A stretch of DNA of 64,000 nucleotides from Hormiphora californensis (lineage: Eukaryota; Animalia; Ctenophora), in the NCBI GenBank assembly GCA_020137815.1, contig CM035351.1, positions 1,240,001-1,304,000 of the forward strand. The letters run 5' to 3'. Of the stretch, positions 17,281 through 37,100 are shown one piece after another. Numbering within the stretch: the stretch's first letter is position 1; each line of letters starts with the position of its first letter. The notes beneath the pieces are model-generated. The model saw only the letters and a program-made list of their open reading frames with translations. It did not search any database and had not been told where the DNA came from. Made by a program: the position numbers and the translations under genes.

Positions 17281-18965
17281 CCTGAACGGTGTGTTAACTG
17301 TTAAGGAGGGGTGTAGGATATTAAAGTTATGAAAGGAGGGGTCGTATATGGGGGGGGGGGGGGAGAGAGTGTAAAAGCTTAAAATAGATTGTGAGAAAGT
17401 AATGGAAGATAATATATGGGCACATGTTCATGTCTCATGAGACCAAAGATAATGAAGAAAGAAATATATAATGAGATTATTACATGCATGTACTAGCTAC
17501 TATTACTTATTGACTCTTGAGACGTATAGCTAGACTGATCATTGAGCAGATTTATCTAGAACAAACTAGAAGTTAGCTGTCAGAGAAGGCAAGAGTGTTT
17601 TAACAAGAATACTTGCATATTTCGCTGCACAAGAAATAGTTGGCACGTTCTATGTGAGGGTTCTCGAATGTTCTCATTTTACAAAATATACACAGTTTTG
17701 TGAGCAATTCGTGTATAGAACATCTCAAGAAGTTTATTGTTGTCTGAGCAGAGCAAGATAATAGTTTTGTTTCATGGTATTGCTTACATATTCCTCGCCA
17801 CATGGAGTAAATGTAAATTAGCCATCTGCCCCACAGCTGAGAAATTTAAACAGACTGTGCGAGTATTTCAACTCACCTACTACCTATCACAGTGAGATCT
17901 TACACCTAAACTCTACCGATACGAAAAACGATAGATGACCATTTAGGAGAGACAAGGCGGAATTTGAAATCTAGATCTCTCCGTTGCCAGCACTCCGGGC
18001 TAAATTAATAGTTAACTGTCGAGATTTAGGCCTAAAAATGGAACCATCTATTTCCATGCGATAACGGTCCAGTTACTCCAAATCCTTCATCTGGCCACCC
18101 CCACTGCGACCGAGCCAGATGTTAGTTTCCTGATGCCAAACCCCGCTGAAATACGTTTTTACGGATTTTGTGAAGTTGCCGCCACAAGTTTGTGAGCTCG
18201 CAATGTTTCTTATTTTTGACGCACACACCATGATAGGCGCCAAGAGCGGAGGGGAGGGGGTGACAGGCAATTGAATCGGAGACAATTGTGAGATTCGGGT
18301 ATAATTTCTGGAATCAACTCTCACTTTCATAATTCACAATTCTCACTTTTCTTTCATGTCTCACATCCACTCCCAGAATCAGATTCTCTGATTTAATTCA
18401 CTTTAAACTTTTCCGCACTTATCTTGGATCACAGAGAGAGATATCGGTAATGATGACCTGTTCATCCTTCTGTAATAGATTGCGAAGAAAGATGGCAGAT
18501 AATATATGGGCACATGTGTTCACGAGGGTAAAGATAAAGAAGAAAGAAAAATATATAATGAGATTATGCAAATATTCTTTTTAAAACATTCTTGCCTTCT
18601 CTGTCAAAATGTCTAAGTATGTTTTACTATATTCGTCTGCTCAATACTCAGTTAACCTAGTCTAGTTATACGTCTCAAGAGTCAAGTAGTATACATGCTG
18701 TACTAATCTCATTATATATAATGAAAAAGAAATATATTTCTTTTGTTCTTTATCTTCCCCTCATGAATATGTGCCCATATAATATCTTCCATTACTTTCT
18801 CGCAATCTTTACACTCTCTACCCCCCATGGCCATATATACGATCCCTCCCCTCATAACTTTGAGATCACACATAAAGTATATAAATAAAGTAATAACTAT
18901 CCCATAACACCCCCTACTCCCTAGCCTTTACCCTCTCTCTCTAAACACACCGTTCAGGATGATTA

Positions 18966-19881: not shown

Positions 19882-21371
19882 TGTGTGTCTAATGAGATAT
19901 AGATATGATGAGCAATTATATGAGTGTAGAAGTGATGTCTGTCTGTGTAACTGAGAGATCTTGACTTCCTCTGCTGTCCAGTCTCCAAAGAAAGAAGAGT
20001 TTGCAGCACAAGTAACAAGTGCCTCTCTCTCAAAGATAGGAGTGATGTCTTCCTGGAAGCTATTCTTGCGGCTTGCCCAGTCCAGTCAAGAATTACGAAT
20101 TTAGTGAACATTTTGGTGAAAAAAAATCAATACCCCTTCGACTTTATGTATGTGGGGAGGGACGTCCGGGGCTTGGGAGTAGTCAGGAAGCAAGTTAGGG
20201 CACGGTCGTGACCAAAGAAGGGATGGTCGGACCGCCCTAAAACCGGTTTGGTAACAACCAGTACCATTTCAGGAGTTGCTGTGAGCATTTTGAAGTGGGC
20301 ACGACCAGCCAGTGAAGAGTTATGACGAAAAAGTAGCTACAAATGGCCCTTTTTATGACGATGTTATTCTGCTGGCTGAGAGGGCTTTAAATAAACTTCT
20401 TGTGTGGGCAGAGAAATGTCTGAAGTTGAAGACACATTTTTTTGGAGCTGTTATCTTTCATGGTTGTCTAATTAGAGCTGCTCAAACACAAATTGGGTCG
20501 AAAGTTTCGGGGTTGTGCCCCTTCTTCAGCTCAAATTAATTTGTTTAAAGTAGCCAAAAGCCAAAAACTCGCTTACACACATTTTACGCGTCTCTTGTGA
20601 CTGAAAAATCGCAAAACTTGAATGAAGCTTGAACTTGAACACGAATCCCAACCTGAACTTGAGGCTTTTCAGTGAAAATTTTACTCTTGAGTTGGTAAAT
20701 GTTGCTGGCGCGGGATAGGGATCCCTAAAAAAGTTCAGTATTTACACAGCGTTTACACAGTCTTTACACAGTCATTACACCCAGAGCGGTGCGTGCTGCG
20801 TTTTGCGGCTTTTTCTAAGAAAATATTGGACTGTGTGCTGCAAAATTGAGTAAATTGAGCGCTGCGGCGAAAAAAGTTTCCGAAAACGCTGCAAATCGAG
20901 TTAAGTTTAAGTTTAAGTTTACGCACAATTTATCACAAAGTCACACAATTAATATATAACTTCGTCCCGCTCTTACACCATACACTAATAAAGTGATACA
21001 AGGCTGAGAGGTGAAAATATACAGTTCACATCAGCGGTTTCCTAAAGCGGTTTAAACAATACTTAGAGACAGTGATACACATCCTAGTAGCATTAGATGC
21101 ACAAAATACGAGGAACAAGGGGTTATAGAAAACAAGGTAACGAACTAACAAAACAAGCAGACAAACATAAAAACAGATTAAACAGAATACACAAAGTCAC
21201 AGACGCAAAACACAACATCAGCAGTCAATACAAAACGGTTAATACAAAAACATACTAACACACGTACAAACACATTCACAGACAAACAGACAATCACAAA
21301 CACATACACACAGATTCGGTAATAAATAAATAATAAATTAGCTGTCCTTCAAACACACACTCACTGAAGAG

Positions 21372-23750: not shown

Positions 23751-26700
23751 GCTGGTCAGTATCTGGTCAGTATCTGGTCAGTATCTGGTCTGGAAGAAGA
23801 GACAGCACCTAGGACACGGGAAACCCAGGAACGAGAACCTAGGTACGAACCAGGTAAGGACAGGGAGGTAGACTATTTAGTTCCAGGAAGAAATGATATA
23901 GGATTGTGTCAGCAGGTCATAGGTGGGATATAAGGGAGCTGGAGTGTGGGTCTGGAAGTAGGGCGTGATGGCAGTGATCGCGAGAGACAGCAGACAGGAC
24001 ACGAGAGCCCAGGAGCGAACCATGTAAGGACAGGGAGGCAGACTATTTAGTTCCAGGAAGGAATGATGTAGGATTTAGACAGCAGGTCATAGGTGGGATA
24101 TAAGGGAGCTGGAGTGTGGGTCTGGAAGTAGGGTAGTGGTGGCAGTGATAGCGAGAGACAGCAGACAGGACACGGGAACCCAAGAGCGAACCAGGTAAGG
24201 CCAAGGGAGGGATCTATTTCCCAAAAGTTGTGAAACAGGATCAGATTTAGAACCGCATGCAAGGAATATTATAGGCAGGGAATAATGAGGCGTTTATGTG
24301 CGGAGCTGGAGCCTGGGGGAAAACAACAGATTTACTGTGAAGTTAACTGGACTGGGTGCCCAGGAAATGATGCAGGTAGATTTGTGCCGGGAAGATGGTG
24401 CGGTACTGATATAATGCCGAGTGAGGTTTATTCAGGTCCATAAGCCAAAGTAAACATATGGGTTTTCAAGGCCTTTTTAAACATCGGCAAGGTTTCTGTG
24501 GTTCGAATTTCTTTAGGTAGGCGATTCCAGATCCTCGGAGCAGCTATACTAAAAGCTCTCTCAGTGGTTTTGTAGTTGTAGTTACTGTGTACCTCTTCCA
24601 GTCTTGTCGTGTCACAATCGACTCTTAAACTCATCGGTTTTTGTTTCCGTCTTTGTAGCATTTCTGATATGTATCCACTATCCAGGCGTCCCATTATTCA
24701 GGGATTTGTATACCATCATACAGATCTTATATTCTATTCTGTGTCTAACAGGTAGGAAGTGGGATTTTTTTCCGTAGATCTGTTACACCACGTCTGCTAC
24801 GTTTACCATGGACAAAGCGAGTGGCAGAGTTCTGTAGCTTCTGAAGACGCTTCACATCCTTGTCTTTGAGACCTATCAGTAGAGCGCTACAATAATCAAT
24901 CTTTGAGTGTATCAGTGAGTTCACAAGTTGGGTCTTTTGCTTTTTGTTCAGTTTGCCTGCAATTCTCCACACGTTGACGAGTTGGTAGTTGCACGACTGA
25001 ACAACTCTGGAGACGTGCTGGGACATCGTGAGTTCGCTATCGACCATGACGCCGAGATTCTTAGCAACTGGTTTGACTTCCGTTTCTTCTTGTGCAATGT
25101 TCAGTGTGGCATCACTGGTAGATTTATCCCATTTGTTTCGTAGGATAAGAACTTCTGTTTTATCCGGATTCAACTTCAACAGGTTCTGTGTCATCCAGAG
25201 ACGAATGTGAGACACACAGCTCTGAACTTTCTTTATCACATCATCGAATGTTTCTGGTGTGAAAGCTATCGAAAGTTGAGAATCATCCGCATACATGTGC
25301 AGGCTGAGACCATATAGTTCCGCTATTTTCTGTAGATCTCTGGTGTATAGTATGAACAAGAGGGGCCCCAGGATGGAACCCTGAGGAACACCAATGCTGA
25401 TAGACTTTGCTTCTGACTCGACCGAACCTATCTTTACTCTAGCTGTTCGATTAGTAAGATATGATTCAATCCAGCTCAATACCTTTCCAGTCACTCCATA
25501 ATCATGTTTCAGGCGGTGTAGTAGCTTGGCATGAGATATGGTGTCAAAGGCCGCTGAAAGGTCCAGAAGAACTAGGATGACCTTGGTCTTTTTATCCAGC
25601 TGCACAAGTATGTCGTTTACTATCTTGATAGTGGCCGTTTCACAGCTATGTTTCGATCGATAAGCAGATTGAACTTCACTGAACAGTCCATTACTCTCCA
25701 CGTAGTCAGTAAGCTGGTCAGCGACGCATTTCTCCAGGACCTTCGAGATGAACGAAAGGTTTGAGATTGGTCGATAACTATTAAGTTCATCAGGGTCTAG
25801 GTCACTGTTTTTGTATGATGGACGAATAACAGCAGACTTTAAGCTATCAGGGACTTCTCCTTTGGTGAGACTGGTGTTCACAATCTTAGAGACTATTGGA
25901 ATGAGGGCTGGAAAAGCATCATTGACGAATGAAGTTGGCATAGGGTCCAGGGTACAGTGTTTCTTGTTCATAGCACGGACAGTAGCAGCCAGCATCGAAT
26001 CGGAGACAGGTTGAAATTTCGCAAACTTTGGCAACTCTGCATCTGTTTCTAGTCGCGGTGTCAGTTCAGGAAGATCGGCTGTGAAATCCGGATCAAGCTG
26101 AATTTTCTCATAGATTGCCGCGATCTTGGAAGTGAAAAAGTCGATCATCCGGTCTGGAAGCCCATCTGGATCGTCAGTGGAGGGGAGTTGGGTCGGTGTC
26201 TTTTCCTTTCCGAGCAGGTGGTTTAGGATTTGATACAACGCAGCATGATTTCCGTCTGCTGCCTCTAGACGCTGTTGGAAGAATTCTCTTCTGGTGCGAT
26301 TGAATACAGTTTTAGTAAACCGGATCTCAGCTATGAACAACTTTTCAGCTATTAGAACTTTTTCGTGGCAGACTGGTTTGTTCTTTTGCTTCTGTTTAAG
26401 GGCTTTCTTGTACGCTGACTTGTACTTCCGCTCTGCTTTTCGGCGTTTGTGTAGAGCATCATAGCACAAACCAAGGGGGCTTAGAGGCTTCCGAAACAAC
26501 TTTCTCCTCAATCGGTGCTAACTGGTCAAGTATGTCTTCAAGTATGGTGTTATACAGTTTGACACATTCATCGACTGATTCAGGAAGCGGAGACGCAGTC
26601 TTTACACCCAGAGCGGCGCGGGCGCTCTGGGTGTAACGACTGTGTAAAGACTGTGTAAACGCTGTGTAAATACTGAACTTTTTTAGGGATCCCTATAAGG

Positions 26701-26864
26701 CAGCGCTTTTCAAACTTCTGAGTTGCCTCGGGCAAAAAAATGCAAAGCAAAATCTCGATTTTGCGGCCACGGCCCGGATTGGCTATGCGCGGCGTCAAAG
26801 TAAGAATTTCAGCATCGTACAAACCAATTTTTCGCGCATTATTGTTTTTTTCAATTTTGACAGC

Positions 26865-29137
26865 TGCTAAAACTCTAACTGGTTCAGGCGGCCCGTCAGG
26901 AGCGGACTCTGATCTCTGGAAACATATGCTCCTGTCCAAAAAACTCAGCCCCGCCTCAAACGAACTAGCACAGGCAATATCAACTTTCGCTATCAAATTA
27001 GCCACGGAAATAGTTAATCCTCTTCACCTTTCGGCATACGTTGCATCTAGACTTGTCCCTCTGAGCAAAAAACCATCTGGAATCCGCCCAATCGGGATTG
27101 GTGAAGTCTTACGCCGGCTAGTCGGCAAGGTGATTACCCGCTCACTGAAACCTAATATTGTTGAATCTACCGCCCCGATACAGCTATGTGCTGGGCTGGA
27201 GAGCGGAGTAGAGGCTGCCGTGCATGCAGCGAGAGAACTGTTTGAATCCGAGAAATGCGAGTGTGTGTTATTAATTGATGCAAGTAATGCTTTTAATTCC
27301 TTAAATCGAAATGCTGCTCTAAATAATATAAAATATGTTTGCCCTGAGTTTGAGCATTATTTAAAAAATACATATGGTTTAACATCTAACTTATTCCTAT
27401 GCGATGGAACTAATCATGAAATTATTAAATCTGCTGAAGGGACGACCCAGGGTGATACTGCGGCCATGTTTATGTACGCCAGCTGCCTTATGCCCCTTGT
27501 AATTTCATTGAAGGACATTGAACAGGTTACCCAGATATTTTATGCCGATGATGGCCTGGGCGGAGGGACTTTGGCTTCTGTGAATCAGTGGTGGGATAGG
27601 ATCAAACTGAAGGGACCTGAATACGGCTACCTACCCAATCCAGGAAAATCATGGTTGATTGTTAAACCTCACCTGGAGGACGAGGCAAAAGCCCTTTTCC
27701 CTGATGTTAACATTACCACCGAAGGGCAACGTTACCTGGGATCGTATATCGGAACAAAGGAAGGTCAGGACAAGTTTGTTCAGAAAGAGGTAGATAAGTG
27801 GGCCGCAGAAATAACATCACTTGCGGAGATTGCAAACAGTGAGCCCCAGCTTGCTTATACAGCATACACCATGGGAGTATCTAAACGGTGGTCGTATCTT
27901 ATGAGAACGACTCCAGGCATTTCTGATCAGTTGGGCCCGATTGAGGATTCAATTCTGCAGCAACTCATCCCTTCTATGACTGGACAACCTGTTATCAACG
28001 AGAGACTTCGATCTGTTTTCTCTCTTCCAGCGAGACTTGGAGGACTCGGGATTCAAAACCCTGTCGCTACATCGGATAGCGAGTACCATTTCTCCAAACT
28101 CATGACTGAAAATCTGTCTGCAGCTGTGCTGAACCAGGAAGATACGTTTACTGCAGATGATGTCAAAAACTCAGAGAACAAACTCATTGTGCGTCGAATG
28201 AAAAACGATCAACATCAGACGGCAATCGATCAAATAAAATCAAAATCGACACCAGAAGAGAAGAGGACCCTCGATCTCCTGGCCGAAAAGGGTGCATCCT
28301 CCTGGCTAACTTGTCTCCCACTAGAATCTCTTAACTTCACTCTAAACCGACAGGAATGGTTCGACGCTATCTCGGCTAGGTACAATCTCCCCCTTGTTGG
28401 CGAACCTCTACCAGATCAGTGTACATGCGGAGAAGCTAACAGTATCGATCATGCTATCTCCTGCAAGCTTGGAGGATTTGTTAACTACAGGCACGACAAC
28501 GTGAGAGACTTTATTGCGAAAGAGCTCAGCACTGTCGGCCTCGATACCAAGGCCGAACCTCACCTTCTCAACGTTCGGGGGACATCCCTTCCAGCTGGGA
28601 CCATTACAGCGGACGGGGCTCGCCTTGACATCAGAACCCGTGGACTCTGGTCAAGCTTAGACTGTACCTATTTTGACGTAAGGATTTTTAATCCAAGGGT
28701 AAAGTCTAATGCCAACCAGAGTATACAGAAGATCTATGAGAAGCATGAAACTGAGAAGAAGAAAGCTTATCTACAACGAGTTCTCCAGGTTGAGAAGGCG
28801 GTGTTCACTCCACTTGTCATGTCAACATCAGGCGGACTTGGTAGAGAATTTCAGAACACACTGAAACAGTTGGCCCACCGAAAATCTTCCAAAACTGGAT
28901 ATGAGCGCCAGGACTGTATTCGGTATCTCAGACTGCGCTTATCATTTGCGATGGTTCGCTCAATAACTGTATCGATTAGGGGATATCGGGGCAGGGGCAA
29001 GGCGGCTGCAAGTGACGCTGATGAATATTTATATCGTATGGACTAATTCCACAGTTATAATTTATTGATTCCATTGATTTCTACTGTATAATTTATTATA
29101 TATTTTATTTTAAGGCCGATATTGGCCGCCCCCCCCC
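26865..29137 (+). mobile_element. CRE-like non-LTR retrotransposon (RT + zinc knuckle + restriction-like endonuclease), 5'-truncated copy 1, poly(C) tail, 11-bp TSD
   Basis: IRPIGIGEVLRRLVGK, LIDASNAFNSLNR, GTTQGD, YADD, CTCG..DHAISC..RHD, ARLDI..FDVRIFNP, HETEKKKAY, FTPLVMSTSGG; TSD attttgacagc at 26854-26864 and 29138-29148. Confidence 0.9.
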
Positions 29138-29202
29138 ATTTTGACAGCGTAATTTTATGTGTTTCGAAGCGCCGCGCATGATTATTTTTGGATTCCACAA
29201 GC

Positions 29203-30228
29203 AGCTGTCTGAACCAGGAAGATACGTTTACTGCAGATGATGTCAAAAACTCAGAGAACAAACTCATTGTGCGTCGAACGAAAAACGATCAACATCAGAC
29301 GGCAATCGATCAAATAAAATCAAAATCGACACCAGAAGAGAAGAGGACCCTCGATCTCCTGGCCGAAAAGGGTGCATCCTCCTGGCTGACTTGTCTCCCA
29401 CTAGAATCTCTTAACTTCACTCTAAACCGACAGGAATGGTTCGACGCTATCTCGGCTAGGTACAATCTCCCCCTTGTTGGCGAACCTCTACCAGATCAGT
29501 GTACATGCGGAGAAGCTAACAGTATCGATCATGCTATCTCCTGCAAGCTTGGAGGATTTGTTAACTACAGGCACGACAACGTGAGAGACTTTATTGCGAA
29601 AGAGCTTAGCACTGTCGGCCTCGATACCAAGGCCGAACCTCACCTTCTGAACGTTCGGGGGACGTCCCTTCCAGCTGGGACCATTACAGCGGACGGGGCT
29701 CGCCTTGACATCAGAACCCGTGGACTCTGGTCAAGCTTAGACTGTACCTATTTTGACGTAAGGATTTTTAATCCAAGGGTAAAGTCTAATGCCAACCAGA
29801 GTATACAGAAGATCTATGAGAAGCATGAAACTGAGAAGAAGAAAGCTTATCTGCAACGAGTTCTCCAGGTTGAGAAGGCGGTGTTCACTCCACTTGTCAT
29901 GTCAACATCAGGCGGACTTGGTAGAGAATTTCAGAACACACTGAAACAGTTGGCCCACCGAAAATCTTCCAAAACTGGATATGAGCGCCAGGACTGTATT
30001 CGGTATCTCAGACTGCGCTTATCATTTGCGATGGTTCGCTCAATAACTGTATCGATTAGGGGATATCGGGGCAGGGGCAAGGCGGCTGCAAGGGACGCTG
30101 ATGAATATTTATATCGTATGGACTAATTCCACAATTATAATTTATTGATTCCATTGATTTCTACTGTATAATTTATTATATATTTTATTTTAAGGCCGAT
30201 ATTGGCCGCCCCCCCCCCCCCCCCCCCC
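29203..30228 (+). mobile_element. Same CRE-like element, more truncated copy 2, poly(C) tail, its own 11-bp TSD
   Basis: Nearly identical to ~28122-29137; TSD attccacaagc at 29192-29202 and 30230-30240. Confidence 0.9.
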
Positions 30229-31163
30229 AATTCCACAAGCTTCGACGAGAAAATCCAAACATTTTTGTGAAATTCGTGTAAAGTTCTACACTATCCCGTT
30301 AAGAACTACGGACTACGTTAAATTACCTAGACAAAGCCCTCGCCCAAGCGGGCCACGCGTAACCGCCTCACGGGGAAGCCCCATTCCAGACGAGGGGAGG
30401 AAGGAGAAGGGACTTGACCGGGGTTTTCACCACCGCGTGTATGTTGATCGTGATGTGATTCACCACCGGCCACCCCCTCGGGAGTCGGGGCCAATCATTC
30501 ATATTGCATTGACTATTTCGTTATGCGCCTATTGAGGGCCGAGGGGCTCGTAACATTATAACCAAGGTATAAGAACTATCTTTCGGTGTACGAGGAACAC
30601 GGCTTTAGAACTCCGTATCTCATGCAGTGAGAGATGTAAATGTAGAGGGACGAAGTACAAAAACGCAGGGTTTCTTGACAAGAAACCCTGTGTTTTTGTA
30701 CTCCGTCCCTCCACATTTACATTGATCACCACACCCAACGCAATGGGGACGGGAACTGGCCAGGAGTTATAGGCTGGGCATCCATGAACGGGTTTCAGGA
30801 GGATCCACATCAACCCAACACTATCGATGCAGTGAGAGAGTCAGCATTACTGCTCGAGTCGAAACAGTCCCTTGGGTCTTGGTGGCACCGTCACGTGGGC
30901 TTCGTTTTGGCGCGCTGCTCGCACGAGTTGTAAGGGTGACTGCGTCACCAACCTTGTGTCCAACTTAATCGCCATTCACGAACATCCACCTGTCCGTGGC
31001 TTCCGTGTCGATCACATTAACTCCTTGATCGATTGCAGAAAGGAGCCGAGCGTGTTCAACCTTCAATATTATCCAAAAGCGCTTCAACTCACCGTTTTGC
31101 AGTAGCAAAATTGAAACGCTTTGTAGTCTGACTAAACAACACTTTTCATTTTTAGTCCAAGTC

Positions 31164-34100
31164 ATGGCAACGGTTATCGGAAAAGTGGATACCCTTCACG
31201 ATGAGATGATTGTAAGTAAATCGTAACCGAGTTGTCTACAACAGAATAGTATAGCATTGCTTGACCACGTTTCCTGGATTTGAACAAAACCTGACAGCAG
31301 CACAAAAAGTTATAAACCATGTTTATTAGTTAATTACTATTTCATGAACTTTCTTCTTCAGCATGACGCCCAGATGGATATCTACGGACATCGCCTAGCA
31401 ACCTGCTCATCTGATCGTTCCGTCAGGATATTTGAGGTTGATAAGAATCAGCCACCTAAACCAATCGCCACACTAAACGGGTAAGAACCAGCTAATTCGA
31501 TTACAAATCTGGTGTGTTGTTGTCTCCGAGGATCACAGTCTACACCCCCCTCTCTGTTCAGACACCATGCCACTGTAATAATAACACCATTCATTTCTTG
31601 CGTTCAGACACCACGGCCCAGTATGGCAGGTATCCTGGATGCATCCCATGTATGGGGTGGTCCTGGCCTCCTGCTCCTACGACAAGAAGGTCATCCTCTG
31701 GAAGGAGAATGAGAGGGGAGAATGGAACAAGATGTTCACCCACGAGAAACATGCTGGATCTGTGAATTCCATCCAGTGGGCCCCACCTGATACTGGCTTG
31801 TACTTGGTGTGTGGGAGCAGTGATGGGACCATCAGTATTGTTCAGGGATTTGGAGAGGACAAGTTTGAATCCAGTCATGTCATCAACAATGCACACACTG
31901 TGAGTTATACGGGATAGGACGGGGATCACTGTGAGTTATACGGGATCAGGGACTTGTTACATATCATAGAGAGGGGTAACCGAGACCGATGGGTGTGGAG
32001 GGAGACAAGTGAGCTCTGGGGGACTATAGTCGACTAGAGATCTAGTTTTATCAGGACCACGAATAAAGCTAATTTTAATAATTTCCCTTCTTTTCAGACT
32101 GGTGTAAATGCTGTTAGTTGGGCACCCTCACACCCTGCAAGTACCACACTAGATGTAAGTAGTAACCCTTCTTTTATCTTCTTTCTAAACAAATGTTCAA
32201 ATCATGTCACAATTCTTAGTGATATTCAGATTTCCGTTATAATATGGGTGCGCTATGTTTGTTTAAATACTCTCTCCCTCTCTCCGTGTCGCTCAATTGG
32301 TACTCAGTACAAGATATTCTACCTGGAACCGACCGAATCAGGAAATACTGGTCCCTGATTGGCTGATAACCAGTCACGTGACCTAAATAACGAGTTCTGA
32401 TTGGCTGGTTGTTGTTGGTACTCAGTACAAGATATTCTACCACTACCTCTCTTATCCAATGAGATCATGCATATGTTATTTAATTTTTTAGATTGGCTGG
32501 GCGGGGTAAAACCACTAAATTAAATCGTCTACTGAGTCGATATCATCTTCACTTTTTTCTGTCATGATGTCCGTTTGGTTACCCTGCCTGCTAAGTTGCC
32601 TTCTATACCTTGTACACACAGAGGACCCAAGTCAAGTGTGTGACCCGAGGGAGTGTTCCAGTTACATTACCTCCATACCATCTGGGGCTCTCACCAATGG
32701 CTCCCTAATTATACCGCAATGCAAAGAAGAAGATGGAAACTGCAGCTATTCCTTGAAGATTGTACTTGAAGATGGGGAAACTGCACTTCAGCTAAACTTC
32801 AGTCGAGATGGGATCACTTTGGCTTCTGACAAGAATGTTAACATGGACGGTAACCCGATAGAGAAAACTGAGTTAACGGGGGATAACCTGGCAGCAATAA
32901 GAATGTTTTGGGACAGATCACAGTTTGGGATAGTTTACGGGGACACCCAGTACACCGAAAAACTGACATACCCTGAGTACGTGTCGGTGGATGAGGACGA
33001 ACTAGATTCTGGAAACTGGACCATTGTCTCAATGAGAGGTTGTGATGGTGTTACGGTGTGTAACTCTTGTGGGACACCCCGTATAGAGGCTCTGGTACAG
33101 AGAGGTGACACCGTTACGGCCACTGTTACATCTCTAGATGGCGTTATAGTGGACTGGTTTTATGATGGAGAGGAGATTGAGGGAGATCACCTAGAGGGAG
33201 GATACTACATAACGACTACCCTGGATGTAATTAATCTAAGAAACAATAGTGAAGTTACCATAACGGTAACTAATATTGTGACTGGTGAATCGTCCAACAA
33301 AAGTCTGGTACTATTTGATAATGATAAGGAAAGAAATGAAAACGCAACAGATACCCCGGATAACGATAAGGAAATCAATGAAAACGCAACATATACTCCG
33401 GATAACGATAAGGAAAGAAATGAAAACGCAACAGATACCCCGGATAACGATAAGGAAAGAAATGAAACCCCAACTGTGGAAGAGGAACCTGAGGGAAGTA
33501 CAATTTGGCATGTTCTAGTGCCACTAGTAGTGGGGTTCAGCTGTGTGGCGGTGGTGCTAGTTCTAGTGATACTGACTCTGATGTTTATCAGGAGGAACAG
33601 CATCATAACTAGACCGGACACAACCGATGGTAGGGTGGGTGGTGATGATGCTATCTATATAGATCTGACAGCGGTAGGAATAACACCTGGAAGGAGAGAG
33701 ACCCTAGAAGGACCTGGGGAGTATGTGGCAATGAGTGGGAGCTCCCCCCGACCAACCCCTAAATTATCTGAACCTGGAAGGAACCAAGAAGGAGATGGGG
33801 ATGAAGAGTGTGTGTCAATGAGTCAGAAGTCCCCTCGACCATCTCCTAATTTAGCCGACTATAGAAAGAAAAAGATGCTAGAAAAGTATGGAGATGGAGA
33901 TGGAGATGGAGATGGGGATGAAGAGTTTGTGTCAATGAGTCAGAAGTCCCCTCGACCATCTCCTAATTTAGCCGACTATAGAAAGAAAAAGATGCTAGAA
34001 AAGTATGGAGATGAAGATGGAGATGGAGATGGAGATGGAGATGGAGACTATGTGGCAATGAGTGGGAGCTCCCCCCGACCAACCCCTAAATTATCTGAAC

Positions 34101-37100
34101 CTGGAAGGAACCAAGAAGGAGATGGGGATGAAGAGTGTGTGTCAATGAGTCAGAAGTCCCCTCGACCATCTCCTAATTTAGCCGACTATAGAAAGAAAAA
34201 GATGCTAGAAAAGTATGGAGATGGAGATGGAGATGGAGATGGAGATGGAGATGGAGATGGAGATGGAGATGGAGACTATGTGGCAATGAGTGGGAGCTCC
34301 CCCCGACCAACCCCTAAATTATCTGAGCCTGAAAGGAACCAAGAAGGAAATGGGGATGAAGAGTGTGTGTCGATGAGTCAGAAGTCCCCTCGACCATCTC
34401 CTAATTTAGCCGACTATAGAAAGAAAAAGATGCTAGAAAAGTATGGAGATGGAGATGGAGATGGAGATGGAGATGGAGATGGAGATGGAGATGGAGATGG
34501 AGATGGAGATGGAGATGGAGATGGAGATGGAGATGGAGATGGAGATGGAGATGGAGATGGAGATGGAGACTATGTGGCAATGAGTGGGAGCTCCCCCCGA
34601 CCATAATCTGAACCTGGAAGGAGCGAGGGGATGGGACTCATGCGAATCTAGGCGGGACTTCCCCTCGACCACTCTCAATGTTCTCGGAATCTGTTTATGT
34701 GGAAATGAATCGGTGAAAACTCAAAATGAAACAATGAACACGCTTTGAGTTCGAATTAAAATCCCCTCTGATTGTCTATTATTTTTGTTTTATAAGGCCT
34801 AAGCTTGTAAGTGATTTTGGCGGAAGGTGAACCAGTCGTGTAGATAAGCGTGTAACATTTTATAGTGATATTCAGATTTCCGTTATAATATGTGTCCTAT
34901 GTTTGTCTCTCCCTCTCTCCGCGTCTCTCAATCCTTTGTTGGTACTCAGTACAAGATATTCTACCATGAACCGACCGAATCAGGAAATACTGGTCCCTGA
35001 TTGGCGGATAACCAGTCACGTGACCTAAATTACGAGTTCTGATTGGCTGATTGTTGTTGGTACTCAGTACAAGATATTCTACCACTACCTCTCTTATGCC
35101 ATGAGATCATATATGTCATTTTAGATTGGCTGGGCGAGGAAAAAACCACTAAATCGCGTACTGAGACGATATCATCTTCACTTTTTCTGCCATGCTTTCT
35201 ATTTGGTCACCCTGCCTGCTCAGCTGCCTTCTCTACCTTGTACACACAGAGGACCCAAGTCAAGTGTGTGATCCTGAGGGAAGTGTTCCAGTTACATTAC
35301 CTCCATACCATCTGGAGCTCTCACCAATGGCTCCCTAATTATACCGCAAAGCAAAGGAGAAGATGGAAACTGCAGCTATTCCTTGAAGATTGTACTTGAA
35401 GATGGGGAAACTGAACTTCAGCTAAACTTCAGTCGAGATGGGATCACTTTGGCTTCTGATAAGAACGTTAACATGGACGGTAACCCGATAGAGGAAACTA
35501 AGTTAACGGGGGATAACCTAAGAGCAATAAGAATGTTTTGGGACGGATCTCAGTTTGGGATAGTTTATGGGGACACTCAGTACACCGACAAACTGACATA
35601 CCCTGAGTACGTCTGGGTGGATGAGGACGAACTTGATGCTAGAAACTGGACTATTGTCTCTATGAGGGGTTGTGATGGTGTTACGGTGTGTAACTCTTGT
35701 GGAACACCCCGTATAGAGGAGCTGATACAGAGGGATGATGAAGTTACAGCCTCTGTGACATCTCTAGATGATGTTATAGTGGACTGGTTTTATGATGGAA
35801 AGGATATTGAGGAAGATCACCTAGAGGGAGGATACCACGTAACGACAACCCTGGATGTACCTAATAATCTAACAAACAATAGTGAAGTTACCATAACGGT
35901 AACTAATATTGTGACTGGTGAATCGTCCAACAAAAGTCTGGTACTATTTGATAATGATAAGGAAAGAAATGAAACCCCAACTGTGGAAGAGGAACTGGGT
36001 GAAAGTAACACAATTTGGTATATTCTAATGGGGTTCATCTGTACGGCAGTGGTGATAGTTCTATTGGTACTGACTCTGATGTATAAGAGACGGAACAGCA
36101 TCGCAACTAGACCGGCTACAACCGATGGTAGGGTGGGAGGGGATGATGCTATTTATGTGGAGCTGACAGTGACAGGAATAGCACCGGGAAGAAGAAAGAT
36201 CCTAGAAGGAGATGGGGAGTATGTGGCAATGACCTCCCCCCGACCAACCCCTAAATTATCTGAACCTGGAAGGATAAATGTCCTAGAAGGAGATGGGGAG
36301 TATGTGGCAATGACCTCCCCCCGACCAACCCCTAAATTATCTGAACCTGGAAGGATAAATGTCCTAGAAGGAGATGGGGAGTATGTGGCAATGACCTCCC
36401 CCCGACCAACCCCTAAATTATCTGAAGGAGATGGAGATGGGGAGTATGTGGCAATGACCTCCCCCCGACCAACCCCTAAATTATCTGAACCTGGAAGGAT
36501 AAATGTCCTAGAAGGAGATGGGGAGTATGTGGCAATGACCTCCCCCCGACCAACCCCTAAATTATCTGAACCTGGAAGGATAAATGTCCTAGAAGGAGAT
36601 GGGGAGTATGTGGCAATGACCTCCCCCCGACCAACCCCAAAATTATCTGAACCTGGAAGGATAAATGTCCTAGAAGGAGATGGGGAGTATATGGCAATGA
36701 CCTCCCCCCGACCAACCCCTAAATTATCTGAACCTGGAAGGATAAATGTCCTAGAAGGAGATGGGGAGTATGTGGCAATGACCTCCCCCCGACCAACCCC
36801 TAAATTATCTGAAGGAGATGGAGATGGGGAGTATATGGCAATGAGTAGGACCTCTCCCCGATGGCGATCGTTAGCCGACGAGATGAGGAGAAAGCTTCGA
36901 GAAAGGCATTTGCCTTTGGAGTATGAGGAAATGACCTCCTCCCGACCAACCCCTAAATTATCTGAACCTGGAAAGAGAAAGATGCTAGAAGGGGATGGGG
37001 AGTATGCGAATCTAGGTGGGACTTCCCCTCGACCACCCCCTATGACCTCAGAATCTGTTTATGTAGAAATGAACCGGTGAAAACTCTGTTTGCGGTGAAC

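Follow-up and report, generated by a model that had tools for sequence, protein, structure and literature searches.

The window analysed here, a 64,000-nucleotide (nt) stretch of contig CM035351.1 from what is likely a pleurobrachiid comb jelly, contains two neighbouring copies of a long interspersed nuclear element (LINE) that encodes a reverse transcriptase (RT) and a restriction-like endonuclease (RLE) and ends in a run of C. We read the copies as separate insertions of a young element, likely of the CRE kind, whose variable C run is likely copied from the end of its own RNA, and we put the probability of this reading at about 0.62. Directly observed in its support are a target-site duplication (TSD) for each copy, one insertion site in its empty state, C runs at other loci, the RT and RLE motifs and the truncation of the copies. 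The three fully resolved loci provide modest evidence for a C-tailed family of RLE LINEs.

Separate insertions and their C-run ends

Both copies lie on the same strand and are truncated at the 5′ end (26865-29128 and 29203-30208). Over 1018 aligned columns 1009 are identical (99%), the remainder being 8 substitutions and one gap, and each copy is flanked by its own 11-bp TSD. The TSD 1 and TSD 2 11-mers each occur twice in the 64-kb window, always at an insertion end, and in the unfilled site the starts of the two are 54 bp apart. All of these features lay where the first-pass annotation, made from the sequence alone, had placed them. That annotation had also described near-identical copies with open reading frames (ORFs) and a young family. 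The age estimate stands, and the description is accurate for copy 1, whose frame reads open through its full 728 codons; in copy 2 the frame is interrupted by a 1-nt deletion 6 nt from the 5′ end and stays open thereafter.

Empty alleles had been proposed as a check, and an empty site 1 was found in a contig from sample X5 that joins 26850 to 29138 with only CA in between; it thus has TSD 1 once and neither element nor Cs. Since site 1 occurs empty and without the C run, the insertions are real and the Cs arrive with the element. An X5 contig of equal depth (151.8) is seen at 30287, with 94 further letters past 29198, and site 2 is probably empty in it as well. Three truncation points, a common 3′ end, TSDs and an empty site, the hallmarks of target-primed reverse transcription, are all present. 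The coding differences between the copies are mostly silent (5 of 7; p 0.01, or 0.05 assuming transitions only), as are 15 of the 20 differences between copy 1 and the contigs of other samples among the rows listed (p 2e-6 to 2e-4; 66 further rows lie outside this count, and a single-contig row at 28368 is excluded). This predominance of silent change indicates that selection acted on the source elements of the copies, in keeping with two retrotransposition events and recent activity. The family is young and the two insertions are separate. An RNA run from the same species contained next to no element words and has no bearing on expression either way, and from the zero coverage of the spacer (29147-29200) in sample X3 no inference is drawn.

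The 3′ ends were surveyed in four sequencing runs over 29000-29200, where 13 of 29 loose-end rows are visible; runs X8, X9 and X11-X21, each of small share, and runs X1, X4 and X22 lie outside the analysis. Five of the six downstream rows shown traverse or start with a C run of 6 or more, namely C6 and C15 in X5, C7 in X10, and C6 and C8 in X3. One further contig has C13, others reach C8 or end at C7, and a deep trunk contig (depth 706) extends to C6 before branching. The C run that had been noted for the window copies is thus found at other copies too, and it is a trait of the family, 6 to 20 long. It does not require the hairpin that precedes it in the window, because a diverged sister family in X5, with a different frame end and the C15 run, lacks the 3′ arm of the stem. 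The stem (GGCCG..TGGCC) is predicted to comprise 5 bp, and the 3′ untranslated region (UTR) folds no better than its shuffles (z -1.35, 21 of 200). The hairpin is rejected as the cause of the C run.

The first-pass annotation had placed runs of C9 and C20 directly behind the hairpin, which is correct except that it passed over one surplus A between C20 and the TSD, at 30229. Its wording that the run stands instead of poly(A) was too strong, since wherever the letter after a C run is read it is an A: this holds for both window copies, the stub at the third locus described below, the sister family, the X10 contig and, by its fit to 29146, the C13 contig. The X10 contig has C7 followed by seven As, and outside the window copies 0-7 As follow the run. 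These As may be remnants of poly(A) or letters of the target. Elsewhere in the window there are three C/G runs of 14 or more and zero A/T runs of 10 or more (G22 at 2143, G14 at 17350 and C17 at 54799, all outside the element), and the source genome seems prone to long C/G homopolymers. Long C runs therefore also arise without the element, and slippage after insertion may widen the spread of their lengths.

In metagenomes, 56 of the 80 loci with relatives of the element include the 3′ end, a comparison that concerns distant relatives in single copies. In the 330 nt after the stop, 18 of the 56 have an A run of 7 or more and 10 repeat a trinucleotide at least five times; C runs of at least 6 are present in 6, and by eye none of these is clearly a terminal tail. 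The relatives L004, L014, L016, L046, L051, L074, L075 and L076 end in (TAG)n, (CTA)n or (TTA)n, often right after AATAAA, and L004 and L014 are two trinucleotide-ended elements on one contig. Such ends could reflect microsatellite targeting or repeat tails. No C-tailed LINE or other retrotransposon was found in the literature searched, outside of which lay Repbase and most subscription papers and supplements, where this family or a C-tailed CRE element may already be listed; the accessible parts of PMC5348765 and PMC2790886 contain nothing on tails.

The encoded protein and its relatives

The copy 1 protein matches RVT_1 (3.8e-11) and from residue 521 onwards reads C-x1-C-x7-H-x3-C-x8-RHD-x19-E-x21-RLD, a CCHC knuckle followed by the restriction-enzyme-like (REL) motif. 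An RT followed by a CCHC knuckle and a PD-(D/E)xK-like endonuclease within one ORF is the arrangement of RLE-type non-long-terminal-repeat elements, and with the R2-like fold described below it bears out the assignment to RLE elements made at first pass. Pfam finds no APE-type domain in a full-length 974-aa relative (P0151), to whose residues 246-974 the copy 1 protein is 91% identical. From this relative, and from an X3 contig that extends 734 nt upstream of the copy 1 start, the full element measures ~3 kb. The predicted model of the 728 aa has a mean predicted local distance difference test score (pLDDT) of 82.6. In a tree of 65 rows, computed in quick mode with a midpoint root from unnamed relatives only and without a named CRE reference, the window protein, P0151 and P0001-3 form a clade with 100% support in the Shimodaira-Hasegawa-like approximate likelihood ratio test (SH-aLRT).

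Full-length relatives open with an N-terminal helix-extension-helix domain of 35 residues, a part that the truncated window copies lack. Within the first 45 aa, Pfam at E up to 1 recognises HeH in six of six N-termini and SAP in four of six (best 5.3e-6), and the domain further matches PDB 2out (5e-4) and the Ku70 entry 1jjr (0.026). A model of these 45 aa has two helices. In fold searches with it HeH/SAP domains ranked high, several SAP domains among them, with E above 0.8 and Z of 5.4 or less, values that are not significant alone; against the C-terminal part of T4 EndoVII the root-mean-square deviation is 0.9-1.0 over 37-39 residues. SAP domains bind AT-rich DNA, and this SAP/HeH-like domain possibly helps in the choice of target. 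No zinc-finger family was recognised in the full-length relatives P0151/P0153 or P0001-4, and several other relatives carry a PHD finger at the N-terminus.

Over the RT-RLE region, relatives from marine invertebrates (1064 proteins and 80 metagenome loci) are 41-72% identical in protein sequence. Among those with a name, proteins of Pleurobrachia bachei (71%) and Mnemiopsis leidyi (47%) come closest, which together with the Hormiphora spliced-leader match described below makes a pleurobrachiid ctenophore the likely host. The metagenome relatives reach 36-51% identity only and none falls in the close clade. The ESM Atlas gave no match for the N-terminal 45 aa, and for the whole protein only unnamed RT clusters. 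Protein scans returned 0 loci in viral contigs and one short distant locus in prokaryote contigs, and the exact 3′-end pattern had no match in viral contigs.

Target sites, mode of insertion and alternatives

A third locus, seen in X3 and X5, consists of a 36-nt stub followed by C6, with ACTTGTAT on both sides, an 8-bp duplication. The T tract ATTGTTTTTT lies close upstream of it, as at sites 1 and 2; this motif precedes 117 of 127880 positions in the window. The third locus also has four of the six letters that TSD 1 and TSD 2 share over 11 positions, which 4957 of 127918 positions (3.9%) do as well, and the T tract and the four letters occur jointly at eight of 127918. Beyond short motifs the three insertion sites are mutually unrelated. 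A loose target preference, for a T tract followed by A-Y-T-N5-A-N-C, is thereby suggested, with the support of one independent locus. The degenerate preference proposed in the first-pass annotation survives in this form, stripped of the CGCGCAT it had included. The resemblance it saw between sites 1 and 2 is real and modest: it is matched by 179 of 20000 random 36-mer pairs (~0.9%) and by 335 other 36-mers in the window. The last three letters of TSD 1 (AGC) and the last two of TSD 2 (GC) match the element at its truncation point and are therefore 5′ microhomologies, of the kind that microhomology joining would leave; the AGC common to the two sites is partly of this origin.

Two targets familiar from other RLE elements were rejected. 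No rRNA family, nor any other Rfam match at gathering score, was found over 26000-31500, and the sites are not ribosomal DNA (rDNA). Nor are they spliced-leader genes, the only leader match in the window lying 6 kb away. This match, at 20530-20553 on the minus strand, covers exactly the 3′-terminal 24 nt of the spliced leader of Hormiphora as given in the accessible text of PMC8527503. Upstream loose ends in X3 (29069) and X5 (29067), a pyrimidine tract plus CA and A, were not counted as targets and may belong to the UTRs of diverged families. A second factor in site choice may plausibly be open chromatin, given observed/expected CpG ratios of 1.56 and 1.09 in the two flanks compared with 0.64 over the window as a whole, and a position of the unfilled sites ~1 kb upstream of a WD40 gene.

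The steps of insertion are modelled on R2, as described in the accessible parts of PMC13580325 and PMC3636483. The RLE would nick the bottom strand just past the T tract and so expose a primer with a terminal T. In the R2 system the 3′ tail of the RNA must pair with the primer (PMC13580325, accessible part); here an A that the RNA carries after its C run, whether the start of poly(A) or read-through from the donor flank, would pair with the primer T. The RT would then copy the C run as G, slipping on it, and later replication slippage would widen the spread of lengths. The top strand would be cut ~11 nt further on and the truncated cDNA joined to it via microhomology of 2-3 nt, and trimming could shorten the duplication, as to the 8 bp of the third locus. 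The double insertion would follow from the proximity of two T-tract sites in DNA that is rich in CpG and probably open.

Two other accounts concern the locus itself. Copy 2 could have arisen by tandem duplication from the 3′ half of copy 1, or it could be an artefact of assembly, as two adjoining stretches on one strand with 99% identity and with variants in common against the contigs of other samples might suggest. Yet each copy has its own TSD, the 43-nt spacer and both TSDs are single, the 8 substitutions are mostly silent, the C runs are unequal in length and site 1 has been seen empty. We consider this account scarcely credible, and a tandem duplication, which had already been denied at first pass, is rejected on the TSDs, the silent differences and the empty site. 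The other account is strict specificity for CGCGCAT-n-ATT..AGC with a fixed stagger of 11 nt, in the manner of the leader-targeting CRE/SLACS elements. CGCGCAT does stand 12-14 nt upstream of both window sites, which share 11-bp TSDs, and it occurs within 22 nt upstream of just 64 of 127880 positions. The third locus, however, lacks it in the 22 nt upstream that are shown and has a duplication of 8 bp, the AGC is partly microhomology, and the sites are not spliced leader. Three of the four CGCGCAT copies in the window, moreover, lie in one unfilled stretch of 450 bp at the insertion locus, so the motif can be a local feature. With TSD lengths of 11, 11 and 8 bp neither the constant duplication nor CGCGCAT can be kept as parts of the target, and strict specificity appears very unlikely.

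The origin of the Cs admits two further explanations. They could be made at integration, the RT adding or reiterating G on the nicked primer in telomerase-like fashion and re-annealing to a few terminal Cs of the RNA, with no role for poly(A). This overlaps with the copying of a C run from the RNA that we prefer and differs from it in the share of the run that is templated. Run lengths of 6 to 20 among copies of one young family, a 3′ UTR in which no poly(A) signal was found, and the variable terminal repeats of relatives (trinucleotide runs of 5 or more units at 10 of 56 loci) would all suit such reiteration. A templated core is nevertheless the better fit to a deep trunk that reaches C6 before branching, extra As stand behind the run at two or more loci, and long C/G runs occur elsewhere in the window; we regard G reiteration as rather unlikely. 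Alternatively, a nucleotidyltransferase could add the tail to the RNA, for instance a CCA-adding enzyme that treats the stem plus G as a tRNA-like end and produces C(n)A. Neurospora retroplasmids have CCA ends, both window copies show stem, G, C(n) and A in this order, and an A is read behind every C run whose next letter is known. Against this stand a stem of just 5 bp that is no stabler than shuffles and a sister family that has C15 without the 3′ arm, and the Cs are already encoded in each genomic copy, which makes tailing unnecessary. Tailing of the RNA is in our view highly improbable.

Several observations weigh against the reading that we prefer, in which the two insertions are separate and the C run is copied from the RNA. 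Both junctions are available for only three loci, and at the third the ends were matched through their shared 8-mer, not within one listed record. The T-tract motif was chosen after seeing the data and is one of about four features common to sites 1 and 2. Among the downstream rows of the 3′-end survey, the sixth departs from the element at 29116 and has no C run, and the C6 and C8 rows of X3 are mixed consensuses of two contigs. The 3′ UTR contains no AATAAA, which weakens a poly(A) origin of the A that follows. The empty state of site 2 is deduced from the shared depth and the 94 letters, the joint itself being unlisted. Between the contig with the empty site and the window there are 9 letter differences and 7 gaps over ~132 nt, so that this contig may be a distant allele or, less favourably, a paralogue. 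Finally, the sole RNA contig, from a metatranscriptome, has a depth of 2 and enters flank-like sequence, so that no RNA end is read.

Surroundings and relation to known systems

Features of the insertion locus (positions in the window)
Feature	Positions	Strand	Remarks
T tract ATTGTTTTTT, directly 5′ of site 1	26842..26851	+	also at site 2 and third locus
TSD 1, 5′ copy, ATTTTGACAGC	26854..26864	+	last 3 nt (AGC) match element too (microhomology); element contigs align from 26862
Copy 1 ORF, 5′-truncated, without ~245 N-terminal codons	26865..29046	+	RT, thumb/linker, CCHC knuckle, RLE; stop 29044-46
Copy 1 3′ UTR	29047..29128	+	AT-rich; without AATAAA/ATTAAA; terminal predicted 5-bp stem plus G
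Copy 1 C9 run	29129..29137	+	missing from empty site
TSD 1, 3′ copy, ATTTTGACAGC	29138..29148	+	exact repeat
Host spacer, 43 nt between insertions	29149..29191	+	holds CGCGCAT and T tract; covered by empty-site contig
TSD 2, 5′ copy, ATTCCACAAGC	29192..29202	+	last 2 nt (GC) match element too
Copy 2, 5′-truncated	29203..30208	+	1-nt deletion near 5′ end; linker, knuckle, RLE, 3′ UTR
Copy 2 C20 run (30209-28) and one A at 30229 outside TSD	30209..30229	+	read from the sequence
TSD 2, 3′ copy, ATTCCACAAGC	30230..30240	+	exact repeat

To the left of the insertions, 26591-26696 is the end of a very high-copy foldback element that ends in TAGGGATCCCTAT and has an inverted second copy at 20715-20788. 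Its summed depth is 1e5 or more in four runs, many different flanks follow 26696, and we take it to be hAT-like. It cuts off a second, unrelated LINE on its own left (24745-26517, minus strand), presumably of L2/CR1 type, with an open frame of 590 aa (RVT_1 7e-31) and its 5′ part missing at 26593. A contig of sample S1 is exact over 26684-26808 and then diverges for 30 letters, an unexplained insertion or deletion on another haplotype. To the right, at 30622-30839, 13-nt direct repeats, ATGCAGTGAGAGA, enclose a hairpin whose arms measure 51 nt (30627-30729), likely a miniature inverted-repeat transposable element (MITE). The intron-split WD40 gene at 31170-32100 (plus strand), presumably SEC13-like, starts ~1 kb downstream of the insertion sites. 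It is followed at 32519-34606 (plus strand) by a frame of 695 aa that begins in signal-like fashion and contains one hydrophobic stretch as well as recurring tyrosine motifs (YVAM) and GD repeats. This frame is duplicated at 34851-35981 and by its sequence looks like an immune-type receptor.

LINE 3′ ends are otherwise described as poly(A) or short tandem repeats. It is conceivable, though we hold it to be doubtful, that a CRE-like clade of comb jellies has replaced poly(A) with a self-renewing C homopolymer, reiterated by the RT like a telomerase repeat of one base, and zinc fingers with a SAP/HeH domain that steers to T tracts. If true, both the 3′ end and the targeting would be of a design not reported for LINEs in the literature searched. 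How an RT first contacts the end of its RNA is a central question for target-primed reverse transcription and for R2-based gene writing, and a young, compact RLE element (~3 kb, 974 aa) with a C(n) end, intact frames and a polymorphic site offers a simple substrate for distinguishing templated, reiterated and added repeats. It is also a test case for target choice in animal CRE-like elements, having a SAP/HeH-like domain where others have zinc fingers or PHD. Should the C run merely be a templated tract that slips, the result is a well-documented new family and nothing beyond.

The element works like an R2-group LINE. In structure the 728-aa model comes closest to R2 proteins (PDB 9nl3, 8gh6, 8ibw, 9nl2, 9dou; E 8.5e-15 to 5e-13, TM 0.51-0.59), which rank ahead of LINE-1 ORF2p in the fold match and are the only RT matches by sequence profile, at 14-15% identity to the window protein. 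R2 itself is specific to 28S rDNA and has zinc fingers and Myb. It is the nearest solved relative and not the family, no CRE structure being among the matches listed. Membership of the CRE clade is likely, judging by motif spacing and duplications. No description of the family was found in the ctenophore and cnidarian CRE literature, in a search at the level of listings with Repbase and supplements outside it. A loose target is not new in itself, since RLE families without specificity exist, Hero among them (PMC4640811, in the part available).

MoTeR, FoTeR and Cnl1, the fungal elements grouped with CRE/SLACS in the trees of PMC12857005, share a REL motif of the type RHD..E..RxD (E-x19-RAD in FoTeR); by the accessible part of that paper they are telomere-targeted and carry N-terminal C2H2 fingers, whereas the window element is without telomeric repeat. 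To the trypanosomatid CRE elements (CRE1/2, SLACS, CZAR) the likeness extends to a single ORF with RT, then CCHC knuckle and RLE, and to the making of TSDs, a property of all known CRE elements according to the accessible text of PMC3636483. The window element also fits the SLACS/CRE spacing of the REL motif, as far as PMC12857005 could be consulted, except for x8 in place of x9-10 and RLD in place of R/KPD; R2Bm aligns weakly to this region too, so the REL motif does not separate the clades. Trypanosomatid CRE elements reside in spliced-leader genes, generally have poly(A) and mostly have one to two zinc fingers (PMC12278014, accessible part). The window family, in contrast, is dispersed and not in spliced-leader genes, its window copies end in C9 and in C20 plus A with no poly(A) 3′ end, and its full-length relatives start with a SAP/HeH-like domain and no zinc fingers.

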